Both the position numbers and the translations under genes were made by a program. The notes beneath the pieces were generated by a model. It was not told the origin of the DNA and did not search any database. It was given only the letters and a program-made list of their open reading frames with translations. A stretch of DNA of 41,529 bases. Source: Pseudomonadota bacterium (lineage in GTDB: Archaea; Thermoplasmatota; SW-10-69-26; JACQPN01; JAJPHT01). Location: positions 1 to 41,529 of the forward strand of contig JAJPHT010000023.1 in assembly GCA_021325135.1 (NCBI GenBank), in the 5' to 3' direction. Positions 16,577-39,769 of this stretch are shown piece by piece (the first letter of the stretch is position 1; every line of letters begins with the position of its first letter).

Positions 16577-17056
16577 GTGGCCCTGGAAGCCCAGCTTGTC
16601 GCCGCCCTGCGCGCGGCCCGCATGACCTTCGCCTGCGCCGAGTCGTGCACGGGCGGCCTCGTGGCGGAGCGCGTGACGCGCGTTGAGGGCGCTTCGGCCG
16701 CGTTCGGGGGCGGCGTCGTCGCGTACTCGGACGCGGCGAAGGCGGACCTCCTGGGCGTCGAGCGCGCGCTGCTGCGCGAGAAGGGCGCCGTCTCGCGCGA
16801 GGTCGCCCGCGAGATGGCGATGCGCGCCCGCGCGCTCCTGGCCGCGGACGTGGCGGTCTCGGCCACCGGCCTCGCGGGGCCCGGGCCGGAGGCGGGCCTC
16901 GTCTTCCTGGGCGTCGCGCACTGGGGCGGCGTCGAGGTCCACGAGATGCGCTACGGCGGCGGCCGCGAGGCGGTGCGCCAGGCCGCGGCCGAGGACGCGC
17001 TGCGCTTCGCCCTGGAGGCGATTCCTCGGGCCAAGGCCGCGCTAGGGGAGCCCTGA
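16577..17056 (+). CDS. CinA C-terminal / NMN deamidase (PncC-like)
   Basis: AESCTGG, GAS..F.GGVVAYS..AK..LLGV, GAVS, TGLAGP. Shares a divergent cttataag TATA with hxlA. Confidence 0.88.
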   Translation: MALEAQLVAALRAARMTFACAESCTGGLVAERVTRVEGASAAFGGGVVAYSDAAKADLLGVERALLREKGAVSREVAREMAMRARALLAADVAVSATGLAGPGPEAGLVFLGVAHWGGVEVHEMRYGGGREAVRQAAAEDALRFALEAIPRAKAALGEP

Positions 17057-33527: not shown

Positions 33528-33866
33528 GTGGCCCCCAAGGGGAGGCGCGCCGCGGCGGCGCTGAGGCAGGACACGACGCCGGGGCGCGTGCTGGCCCTGG
33601 CGCTGGTCGCGAACCTGCCCGTCTTCCTGGCGTTCATCCTCCTGCCCCTCCTCGCCTCGGGCGACCGGCGCGCGGGGCTGTGGCTCTTGCCCTACGTCGT
33701 GTACGGCACGCCGCTGGTGGCCATCGGCAGCCTGGGCGTCTACCTGCGCGCGCCCCAGGAGCGCAAGCGGCACAACGCGTCGCGCCTGGGCCTCATGCTG
33801 GCCCTCGCGGCGCTCCTCCTCTGGCTGCTCGTCGTGCTCTCGCCGGGCCTACGCGGCGGGGCGTGA
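33528..33866 (+). CDS. Small membrane protein (3 TM)
   Basis: Three hydrophobic segments; follows the CxxC gene by 6 nt. Confidence 0.65.
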   Translation: MAPKGRRAAAALRQDTTPGRVLALALVANLPVFLAFILLPLLASGDRRAGLWLLPYVVYGTPLVAIGSLGVYLRAPQERKRHNASRLGLMLALAALLLWLLVVLSPGLRGGA

Positions 33867-34550
33867 GCGCGAGCGGACGCCCACGACCGCGCGCAGCAGC
33901 GCCGCCACGGCCTCCGCGACCAGGGCGCTCAGGAGCGCCACGAGGTAGATGCCGTCCAGCAGGCCGGCTCCCCCCAGGATGATGCGCCCCGCGCCGCCCG
34001 CGTCCGCCAGCGCGCGCAGGTGCATGACGTCCGCGCCCAGGAGCACGCCCACGCCGCCGCCCGCGAAGGCCGCCGCGCCCGCCGCCTCGGGGCGCCGGTG
34101 CAGCAGGCCCGCGGCCACGACGCCCACCACCAGCGCGGGGAGGCGGTACTGGAGCAGGATGCCGCGGTCGGGCACGACGCGGCTCGACGCGAACGCCACG
34201 AGGACACCGATGCCCACGACGACCACCGCCTCGGCCCCCGGGAGGCGCCGGTCCACGAGGACCTTCACGCCCACGGCGACGGGCACGACGCAGCCCGCCA
34301 GGTTGGCCGCCAGCGCGACGTGGGCCGAGACGTGCCCCAGGGGCGCGTCCACGAAGACCAGGAGCGGCGCCAGCGCCGCCACCAGCACGGACTCCAGCCG
34401 CGAGAGGCCCGCCGTCCGCAGCAGCCACGTCCCGACCACCGCCAGGAGCACGAGGGCCACGCCCACCACGGGCCACTCGGCCGGCGCAGGCGCGCCGCCG
34501 TGCCCGGTCGCCAAGGTGGCCAGCCGCGCGGCCCAAGGCAGGCTCGTCAT
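33849..34550 (-). CDS. DUF1614 family membrane protein
   Basis: AANLAGCVVP, GVLLGADVMHL, LGGAGLLDGIYL resemble DUF1614 motifs. Start 34550 or 34583. Confidence 0.75.
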   Translation of the reverse strand: MTSLPWAARLATLATGHGGAPAPAEWPVVGVALVLLAVVGTWLLRTAGLSRLESVLVAALAPLLVFVDAPLGHVSAHVALAANLAGCVVPVAVGVKVLVDRRLPGAEAVVVVGIGVLVAFASSRVVPDRGILLQYRLPALVVGVVAAGLLHRRPEAAGAAAFAGGGVGVLLGADVMHLRALADAGGAGRIILGGAGLLDGIYLVALLSALVAEAVAALLRAVVGVRSRSRPAA

Positions 34551-34658: not shown

Positions 34659-34746
34659 GCTGGGGCTCCGCCCCTGGAAACCCCGAATCTCCGAATCTCG
34701 GAATCACCGAGCGGAGACTCGGCGTATCAAGGGGCGGAGCCCCAGC
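34659..34746. repeat. Palindromic element family D (GGGGCTCCGCCCC / GGGGCGGAGCCCC arms)
   Basis: Perfect 17-bp arms 34659-34675 / 34730-34746 enclosing 8-nt periodic ccgaatct units. Related half-site at 325-355. Confidence 0.85.
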
Positions 34747-34762
34747 GACCCGAGAGCAGGGG

Positions 34763-34982
34763 CCCTGCCACCAAGTCGATGGCCCCGCAAGGATCATAGG
34801 GGAGGTGCCAGGATAGGCCGCTTGGCCCGTTGAGGATTCAGTTATCACGGCGAGGTCGGGCACCCACCCAATCAAATACCGCCCGGCCGGATGACCTGTC
34901 TTTTCGAAGCTGAGGGCCTTCTTTGCTTCAGTGGGCACTCCGTCGCACGCGCTTTCGCGCGTGCGGACTTCGTGGCAGAGGG
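34763..34982 (-). ncRNA. Candidate structured non-coding RNA of unknown class (~220 nt)
   Basis: Terminal helix ctgccac-n-aagtc / gactt-n-gtggcag, 8-bp GAAA-tetraloop hairpin (34945-34964 on -), further stems, lower GC, no credible ORF. Confidence 0.5.
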
Positions 34983-35173
34983 GGTGGCCTCCCCCTTGGG
35001 GCTCCACTACAACGGAGGGTCTTTGGTGGAGGGTCGCGAAGGGGGGACCCCTCTTCTGGCGGGTCGCGATGGGGAAGCGCCGCGGGGCGCGGGGGGCGTT
35101 CGTGACGGGTGAGGGGCCCTGGGTGGGGCGCCCCCAAGAATGGTTTATCCCGGAGGGGGGCCTCGCGGCTTCG

Positions 35174-36511
35174 ATGGCCCGCGACGTGGAGGACGCCAGC
35201 TTCGACGACCTGCCCCTCTCGGAGCGGGCGCGGGAGGCCGTGCACCGGCTGGGCTGGCGCGCGCCCACGCCCATCCAGCGCCTCGCGATCCCGCAGCTTG
35301 CCATGGGGCGCGACGTCATCGGGCGCGCGGAGACGGGGAGCGGCAAGACGGCCGCCTTCGGCCTCGTGCTGGCGGACCAGGTGAAGGCGCCCGGGCTCCA
35401 GGCCCTCGTCCTCGCGCCCACCCGCGAGCTGGTCGTCCAGATCGCGCGCGACCTCAACGCGCTGGCGGAAGGGGCCCCCTTCCGCGCCGTGCCCGTCTAC
35501 GGCGGCGTGCCCTACGACGAGCAGCTCAAGGCCCTCGCGGACCCGCAGACGACGTGCGTCGTCGCCACGACGGGGCGGCTGCTGGACCTCCTCGCGCGCA
35601 AGCAGGTGCTCCTCGACCGCGTGCGCTTCGTCGTCCTCGACGAGGCCGACCGCATGCTGGACCTGGGCTTCCTCCCCGAGGTGGAGCGCGTCCTCAAGCT
35701 CATCCCCGGCGGCCGCCAGACGGCGCTCTTCACCGCCACCATGCCCAAGAAGGTCGCCCTGCTGGCGCACCAGTACATGGCCCACCCGCGCGAGATGGAG
35801 GTGGGCCCCCAGACGCCGGAGACGGCCGAGCACTACCGGGTCGACGTGGCGAGCCCGCACAAGCTCCCCGCCCTGGTCGCGCTGCTCCAGAAGGAGCGGC
35901 CCCCGCGCTGCCTCGTCTTCGTGCGCACGCGCGACGGGGCCGCCCGCCTCGCGGCCGACCTCGTGCGGGAGGGCGTCCTCGCGACGCCGCTCCACGGCGA
36001 CCTCACGCAGGCGCAGCGCGAGCGCATCGTGGCCAACCTCCGCGAGGGGCGCGACGCGCTGGTGGTCGCCACCGACGTCGCGGCGCGCGGCCTCGACTTC
36101 CCCGCCATCACCCACGTGGTGAACTACGACGTGCCCGAGGAGGCCGAGCAGTACGTCCACCGCGCGGGGCGCACCGCGCGCGCGGGCCGCGAGGGGCGCG
36201 TCTTCACGCTGGTCACGGAGAACGACGGCGCGCACGCCGAGGCCGCGCAGCGCGCCGCGAAGCGCAAGCTGGAGCCCTACCCGCTGCGCTTCTCCTCGGC
36301 GCAGGGCGACCTCGTCGACACGGCGAAGACGCCCGTCACGCCCGCGAAGGTGGAGCGCGCGGGCGGCAACGCGCGCGGCGCGCGGCGCAAGAACAAGCCC
36401 ACACCCCCCAAGGCCGCCTCGCAGCGCGTCGACCCCGAGGAGGAGGCCGCCGACACCTCTCCCTCGAAGGAGTTCGACCTGCCCCCGTCGCGGCGCGAGC
36501 GGCGGCAATAG
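35174..36511 (+). CDS. DEAD-box RNA helicase
   Basis: Q motif PTPIQ, AETGSGKT, PTREL, GG, DEADRMLD.GF, TAT, LHGD, TDVAARGLD, YVHRAGRTARAG. TATA ggtttat ~27 nt upstream of ATG 35174. Confidence 0.95.
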   Translation: MARDVEDASFDDLPLSERAREAVHRLGWRAPTPIQRLAIPQLAMGRDVIGRAETGSGKTAAFGLVLADQVKAPGLQALVLAPTRELVVQIARDLNALAEGAPFRAVPVYGGVPYDEQLKALADPQTTCVVATTGRLLDLLARKQVLLDRVRFVVLDEADRMLDLGFLPEVERVLKLIPGGRQTALFTATMPKKVALLAHQYMAHPREMEVGPQTPETAEHYRVDVASPHKLPALVALLQKERPPRCLVFVRTRDGAARLAADLVREGVLATPLHGDLTQAQRERIVANLREGRDALVVATDVAARGLDFPAITHVVNYDVPEEAEQYVHRAGRTARAGREGRVFTLVTENDGAHAEAAQRAAKRKLEPYPLRFSSAQGDLVDTAKTPVTPAKVERAGGNARGARRKNKPTPPKAASQRVDPEEEAADTSPSKEFDLPPSRRERRQ

Positions 36512-39082: not shown

Positions 39083-39155
39083 GGGCGCTTAGATCAGTTG
39101 GTAGATCGCGTCCTTCGCAAGGACGAGGCCGGGGGTTCAAATCCCCCAGCGTCCA
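39083..39155 (+). tRNA. tRNA-Ala (CGC)
   Basis: Acceptor GGGCGCT/AGCGTCC with G3:U70, anticodon arm cgtcc-TTCGCAA-ggacg, T-loop GGTTCAAATCC, discriminator A, T-tract after. Confidence 0.95.
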
Positions 39156-39695: not shown

Positions 39696-39769
39696 GGGCG
39701 CGTAGGCTAGTTTGGATAGACTTGGGGCCTCCGGAGCCTCAGACCTGGGTTCGAATCCCAGCGCGCCCG
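39696..39769 (+). tRNA. tRNA-Arg (CCG)
   Basis: Acceptor GGGCGCG/CGCGCCC, anticodon loop CTCCGGA, T-arm ctggg-TTCGAAT-cccag, discriminator G. Confidence 0.95.

Follow-up and report, generated by a model that had tools for sequence, protein, structure and literature searches.

The stretch of DNA analysed here (the window) is a 41,529-nucleotide contig from a genome of the Thermoplasmatota, and the question raised by its intergenic region between a DUF1614 gene and a DEAD-box helicase gene is what kind of RNA is encoded there and on which strand. The preliminary description, made from the letters of the window, proposed a closed structured RNA of about 220 nt on the minus strand. Our analysis points to a box C/D sRNP guide that acts on domain V of the pre-23S rRNA, a reading to which we assign a probability of roughly 0.88. 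The sRNA is predicted to be transcribed independently from the plus strand, between two unrelated dispersed hairpin repeats, in the following arrangement:

33849-34550, minus strand: DUF1614 membrane protein gene (PF07758), with orthologues across the family
34659-34746, unstranded: dispersed hairpin repeat of family B, with 35-nt arms and heptamer units
34765-34777, unstranded: left closing arm of the previously proposed RNA, upstream of where the sRNA promoter is placed and similar to a repeat-like element at C42:72657
34794-34799, plus strand: TATA-like A/T-rich box at -30 to -25 from stem I, of putative promoter function
34824-34918, plus strand: box C/D guide sRNA of about 95 nt, with covariance-model homologues and covariation; ends predicted
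34919-34924, plus strand: pyrimidine/U-rich tract, a possible terminator judging by its sequence
34933-34996, unstranded: dispersed palindromic repeat of family A, which takes in the GAAA/UUUC hairpin, the arm that would close the proposed RNA on the right and one half of its proposed pseudoknot (34930-37)
35174-36511, plus strand: DEAD-box RNA helicase gene (PF00270, PF00271), with a putative start at a probable leaderless ATG (35174) and its own TATA at 35144-49

The genome that contains the window (G000; completeness 94%) was compared with eight other genomes of the same Thermoplasmatota family, f1 (G001-G008). The genus of G000 consists of five genomes (G000-G004), and G006, G007 and G008 belong to other genera of the family. 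Homologues were sought with the DUF1614 gene as the anchor first and with a covariance model next; the model identified the sRNA in seven of the eight other genomes, the one without a homologue being G005 (72% complete). The weakest match is that in G006 (E 8e-4), and G004 encodes two copies (G004a and G004b), the second of which is diverged and located upstream of another DEAD-box gene on contig C94. Outside family f1, there was no covariance-model match at E<0.1 in the genomes searched; pattern scans of metagenomes and of the entire phylum were too loose and returned noise, so the range beyond the family is to be read as 'not found in those searched'. In G002 and G004a, the sRNA gene and its promoter have the opposite orientation to that in G000, G001 and G003.

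The homologues share a common plus-strand layout, namely, a 5-bp stem, a 3-nt bulge, box C, a guide of 11-13 nt whose core is invariant, box D', a hairpin, box C', the second guide and finally box D. In the window, these parts are assigned as follows, all on the plus strand:

34824-34828 with 34914-34918: terminal stem I, 5 bp, 100% paired in all alignment rows
34830-34836: box C (UUGAGGA), following a 3-nt kink-turn bulge
34835-34846: D' guide antisense element, pairing with 23S rRNA 2447-2458 (E. coli numbering)
34850-34853: box D' (GCGA); CUGA or CCGA in G006, G007 and G008
34854-34888: D'-C' hairpin, with an 8-bp stem (34854-61/34881-88) and a 19-nt loop
34863-34871: antisense element of the hairpin loop, with complementarity to the P loop (23S rRNA 2244-2252), a candidate for extra base-pairing
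34889-34894: box C' (GGAUGA); AUGAUGA or GUGAUGA in G001, G004, G007 and G008
34897-34909: D guide, pairing with helix 81 (E. coli 2263-2273), with C34905 as the N+5 base
34910-34913: box D (CUGA), directly abutting the 3' arm of stem I

Compensatory changes were detected at three of the five pairs of stem I and, in the D'-C' hairpin, at five of the eight pairs in the model-fitted alignment or three of eight in the MAFFT alignment. Covariation of both stems was equalled in 0 of 500 shuffles and was much lower in slid controls; these are counts and not probabilities, given that the sequences are kin rather than independent.

Together, box C, close to the 5' end, and box D, at the 3' end, make up a predicted kink-turn on the terminal stem; its geometry is retained in the homologues, with GC in place of the GA of box C in G007 and G004b. 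Box C always begins 3 nt after stem I and reads GUGACGA, GUGAAGA, GUGCUGA or similar in the homologues, and box D is CCGA or ACGA in G001 and G006. The internal D' and C' boxes are present as well: they are degenerate in G000 (GCGA, GGAUGA), with a 1-nt bulge, and across its genus, and canonical in G007 and G008, which have textbook C'/D' kink-turns. A strict scan for the C/D architecture returned only six candidates in the entire G000 genome, this sRNA among them, and the genes for fibrillarin, Nop5 and an L7Ae-family protein are all present. At 95 nt, with a 35-nt hairpin, the RNA departs from the compact format, in which D' and C' are joined by a short K-loop and the whole measures about 50 nt; that size, however, is typical of archaeal box C/D sRNAs rather than a strict requirement (PMC6009581). 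A structural UCAG/CUGA helix suggested by RNAalifold was rejected, because the D-box variants of G001 and G006 break the pairing and complementarity to rRNA explains the sequence. A short hairpin at 34827-34850 (arms 34827-33 and 34845-50), corresponding to the ccgt/acgg stem reported earlier, connects box C and the end of the D' guide; the same hairpin is possible in G002, G003, G004a and G006, and its formation would be in competition with that of the kink-turn.

Across nine homologues, an A/T peak is located 25-30 nt upstream of stem I on the plus strand; in G000, the A/T-rich box directly follows a purine-rich, BRE-like stretch and has the same offset from the sRNA as the helicase TATA (35144-49) has from the ATG at 35174. 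Pyrimidine-rich 3' flanks are found in several homologues, too. A scan for sigma-70 promoters and terminators was empty, as expected for an archaeon.

Assembled rRNA was not found in G000; accordingly, targets were taken from relatives, namely G002 (same genus), G006 and G007, plus a fragment from G008, with E. coli numbers assigned by alignment to the E. coli 23S sequence. The target segments hardly vary within the family, and the G008 23S fragment likewise includes the D' target. Three segments of the sRNA pair with domain V of 23S rRNA, within 220 nt of this one domain. Both the D and the D' guide form at least nine contiguous Watson-Crick pairs, with the N+5 position paired.

The D' guide forms 12 bp, including one G-U, with positions 2491-2502 of the G002 23S rRNA (E. 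coli 2447-2458), the strand that carries A2451 at the peptidyl-transferase centre; this match was equalled by 2 of 300 shuffles. In 15 genomes of the order, the 12-nt guide pattern matched nothing but these sRNAs and the strand opposite 23S rRNA genes, the controls gave no match, and the guide tracks a lineage-specific rRNA sequence at 2453-2456 that differs from those of E. coli and family f6. A search for a tRNA target detected no exact complement of the D' guide in G000 outside the sRNA itself. Measured against the rRNA of the relatives, nine of the pairs are contiguous Watson-Crick pairs and the N+5 position falls on A2448, near the edge of the duplex. The N+5 nucleotide is A2448 in G000, G002 and G004b, A2450 in G001, G003 and G004a, and U2449 in G006, G007 and G008; the pairing core is invariant while this register shifts, which suggests that the pairing itself is under selection.

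The D guide forms nine contiguous Watson-Crick pairs (11 with one G-U) with helix 81 at 2263-2273, and its N+5 base, C34905, lies opposite the same G (E. coli 2265) in G000, G001, G002 and G007. Taken alone, this match is modest (equalled in 34 of 300 shuffles), and it is lost in G003, G004, G006 and G008. A loose genome-wide C/D scan yielded three hits compared to 0-5 with shuffled targets and so failed to separate real from shuffled targets; hence, single 9-bp matches carry little weight alone. Methylation of G2265 directed by the D guide is the firmest prediction.

We favour the guide sRNP because the order and spacing of the boxes fit the archaeal model (PMC6009581) across nine homologues, the stems covary, the guide follows the rRNA, a TATA-like peak is present on the plus strand and the genes for the core proteins are in the genome. 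In the established pathway, binding of L7Ae to kink-turns is followed by assembly with Nop5 and fibrillarin, and methylation takes place at the ribose that is paired five bases upstream of D or D' (PMC6009581, PMC7994747). By this route, L7Ae would bind at the C/D kink-turn, with the degenerate C'/D' motif probably a second site for it, Nop5 and fibrillarin would join the L7Ae-bound sRNA, and the sRNP would pair with domain V of the nascent 23S rRNA. The D guide would direct 2'-O-methylation of the G that closes the helix-81 loop (E. coli 2265); pairing with 2447-2458 would bring the D' guide to the peptidyl-transferase ring, where it may direct methylation of one of the nucleotides 2448-2450; and the hairpin loop may hold the adjacent P loop (2244-2252), helping the D guide to invade helices 80/81.

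The class of RNA is already known; judging from the sequence, it is the size and the hairpin-borne third antisense element that set this putative member apart. It resembles characterized archaeal box C/D sRNAs (Lui et al. 2018, PMC6009581; Dennis et al. 2015, PMC4644070) in the C, D', C' and D boxes and the terminal kink-turn, in having two guides of 12-15 nt that obey the N+5 rule, in the presence of L7Ae, Nop5 and fibrillarin in the genome, and in having two targets that are separated by more than 100 nt of primary sequence. It differs from them in its length (95 instead of ~50 nt), in the 35-nt hairpin in place of a short K-loop, in the third antisense element, in the degenerate C'/D' of the genus and in having no Rfam family match. 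The closest counterparts with respect to the target are Ignicoccus sR414 and Thermoproteus sR140 (PMC4644070, Additional file 1), the guides of which address the same 23S strand at ~2445-2452; sR414 likewise uses GCGA, as its D box. In both of these sRNAs, the pairing extends to the 2443-2446 side and N+5 lies a few bases 5' of that in the present RNA, the second guides are unrelated, and the hairpin insert is absent.

Additional C/D candidates were noted in the course of this work. On contig C31 of G000, near 16614 on the minus strand, a 75-nt candidate with guides to 23S 1555 and 2082 (G002 numbering) adjoins a family B repeat. Loci L237 (G006), L238 (G008) and L239 (G004) represent another family of C/D sRNAs, in which both guides are conserved, the D'-C' linker is rich in C and the D guide matches 23S near 867 over 9 bp. 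In G007, a second C/D sRNA (L229:1648-1718) lies about 60 nt from the homologue, and its D' guide matches the 5' end of 16S rRNA.

We give slightly under even odds to an ordinary dual-guide sRNA in which the P-loop match is a coincidence and the loop merely a structural insertion. The loop and the P loop form nine Watson-Crick pairs in G000, G001, G002 and G003, eight pairs with a G-U in G007 and six in G004a, but the match is weak or absent in G004b, G006 and G008, as coincidence would predict. Moreover, a C-rich loop is here compared with a G-rich target: the local p value by shuffling is 0.05, nine of 616 other rRNA windows are as good (p 0.015-0.05 over these two estimates), and against all rRNA the match was equalled in 57 of 300 shuffles. 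Coincidence does not readily account for a 9-nt element that remains unchanged in four genomes of the genus despite covarying flanking stems and diverging D guides, nor for the location of the P-loop match only 11 nt from the D target. It is also challenged by a second sRNA of G000, the loop of which independently matches rRNA at a distance of about 20 nt from the target of its D guide. That sRNA, L270 (C40:76954-77034, plus strand), is an 81-nt box C/D sRNA with guides to 16S G1137 and G982 (G002 numbering) and a nearly identical copy in G002; its D'-C' loop pairs over 11 nt with 16S 1008-1018, beside the D target (p ~0.001 by shuffling; 8-9 of 616 windows).

Extra base-pairing has been described for yeast and human snoRNAs, for example, snR70, in which a conserved element of 4-11 nt between D' and C' takes part (van Nues et al. 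2011, PMC3116282). The present RNA may share with snoRNAs of this type a stem-loop element that is complementary to rRNA beside a predicted methylation site and is not followed by a D box; it differs in being archaeal and in that the candidate element lies beside the target of the D guide. In a limited literature search, which is weak evidence of absence, we found no report of extra base-pairing in archaea. A broader proposition, which we advance tentatively and with about one part belief to two parts doubt, is that this lineage has enlarged C/D sRNAs with a functional third antisense element and that the present RNA clamps the P loop, helix 81 and 2447-2458 as a chaperone comparable to snR190.

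Somewhat doubtful, in our estimate, is the related view that the same C/D RNP mainly chaperones the folding of the peptidyl-transferase region, with methylation secondary or absent; three strands of domain V would be held apart or together, and the neighbouring DEAD-box helicase might release the RNP. This view refines the guide RNP and does not exclude it. It draws on the invariance of the D' core despite an N+5 register that varies among three positions, on the loss of the D guide from several homologues, on the retention of the P-loop match in G003 though the D-guide match is gone, and on the helicase gene adjoining the sRNA in four of the five genomes of the genus. Precedents are available in archaeal guides with distant targets or with mismatches at N+5, among them long-range dual guides (PMC4644070) and cases of target interaction without methylation (PMC6009581), and in yeast snR190, a non-methylating chaperone snoRNA that acts at the peptidyl-transferase centre and is released by the helicase Dbp7 (PMC8536666). 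The likeness to snR190 and Dbp7 consists in a box C/D RNA that pairs with large-subunit rRNA near the peptidyl-transferase centre and has a potential helicase partner; no sequence homology is claimed, and the helicase link here is one of gene adjacency at the level of the genus. However, target shifts of a few bases by indels are common in archaeal guide families (PMC4644070), G006, G007 and G008 have canonical D' boxes that all address U2449, and no helicase gene was seen within 1.5 kb of the sRNA in the genera of G006-G008 or in G002. Under the guide sRNP reading, help in folding may be as important as methylation.

Very improbable is a cis-acting leader, in which an L7Ae-bound kink-turn would regulate the helicase or DUF1614 mRNA. 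The sRNA is upstream of the helicase gene and co-oriented with it in G000, G001, G003 and G004b, and L7Ae-regulated kink-turn leaders are known (PMC6298567); yet the orientation flips toward DUF1614 in G002 and G004a, which makes a cis-regulatory role, also proposed in the preliminary description, unlikely. In addition, the helicase gene has its own TATA and leaderless start, and the guides complementary to rRNA would be left unexplained.

The 220-nt minus-strand RNA or riboswitch closed by 34765-77/34966-78 is the least probable alternative and is already largely refuted: the pairings listed for it are present, but the segment is a mosaic rather than a single unit. Its closing arms do exist (13 nt, 92% paired), and such a 12/13 inverted repeat was equalled in merely 13 of 500 shuffles of the 236-nt segment (49 of 300 for the whole gap); a 9-bp hairpin with a GAAA tetraloop is found at 34944-65; and the minus strand of 34755-34990 folds at z=-2.5 relative to shuffles, compared to z=-1.8 for the plus strand. 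Against this, the core taken by itself shows no advantage over shuffles when folded as the minus strand (z=+0.7), the orthologous loci of G001-G004, G007 and G008 retain the core at ~34824-34918 only, without the repeat and the closing helix, and the boxes, guides and promoter can be read on the plus strand only. The closing helix, the GNRA hairpin, the pseudoknot or switch and the minus-strand TATA are all dispersed repeat or chance. Indeed, the GNRA hairpin and the right closing arm belong to the family A repeat, as does one half of the alternative pairing that was taken for a switch (34930-37), and the minus-strand TATA (35004-12) lies inside a hairpin beyond the repeat and is without a counterpart in the relatives. 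The flanking genes were correctly identified, DUF1614 on the minus strand and the helicase on the plus strand, and the gap does contain an unannotated RNA, which is conserved and covarying; that RNA, however, is of about 95 nt, belongs to a known class and is co-oriented with the helicase rather than divergent from it.

Only the middle of the interval, ~34824-34918, is single-copy and common to the relatives. Family A is represented in G000 by five near-identical copies, the one in the window and four others, and at none of these four is the partner (left) arm found within 500 nt; the left closing arm is probably a chance match or a decayed repeat end. Relatives of family A are present in G001, G004 and G007; in G007 and G004, they have a symmetric 3x3 GGA/GGA internal loop on one strand and a variable inner hairpin, and often follow directly after stop codons or tRNAs. 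One copy in G000 adjoins the 3' end of a tRNA-Gly on contig C33. A Y1 transposase (PF01797), the cognate enzyme of repeats of the REP/IS200-605 type, was not found in G000 (94% complete). Family B, with 36 matches at ~24 places in the G000 genome, is unrelated to family A; repeat copies are located on C33, C34, C42 and elsewhere. An additional repeat-related stretch occupies 35049-35116 in the window. Three tRNAs called by ARAGORN in G000 (C8:25591, C15:46271 and C29:38498), including a 'tRNA-SeC', look like palindromic repeats.

The Rfam covariance-model search that the preliminary description had proposed produced no match at the gathering score in the interval; at E<=10, there were weak off-target matches only, all on the left repeat, and the candidate RNA matched no riboswitch, ribozyme, RNase P, SRP or other Rfam family. 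Several other identities were considered and abandoned: a divergent RNase P RNA (the genome has its own on contig C34), a small ORF in the core (in G003, its frame is interrupted) and resemblances to a dif site, a replication origin, glmS and c-di-AMP elements (there is no palindrome or conserved core and no Rfam match). Elsewhere in the window are an SRP RNA of archaeal type, truncated by the contig end (41259-41529), which marks the genome as archaeal, tRNA-Ala(CGC) at 39083-39155 and tRNA-Arg(CCG) at 39696-39769.

This locus illustrates that a small RNA can be mistaken for a larger structured one when a dispersed hairpin repeat lies next to it. As a plain guide, the RNA would add to the archaeal C/D sRNAs that have escaped annotation; it would be of use in annotating genomes and in predicting which positions of the catalytic centre are modified in an uncultured lineage. 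If the loop pairing is real, archaeal extra base-pairing would become testable in the simple three-protein archaeal system, and such a case would suggest that guide enlargement arises repeatedly. Should the broader proposition of enlarged C/D sRNAs with a functional third antisense element be true, extra base-pairing of the eukaryotic style would exist in an archaeon far from Asgard.
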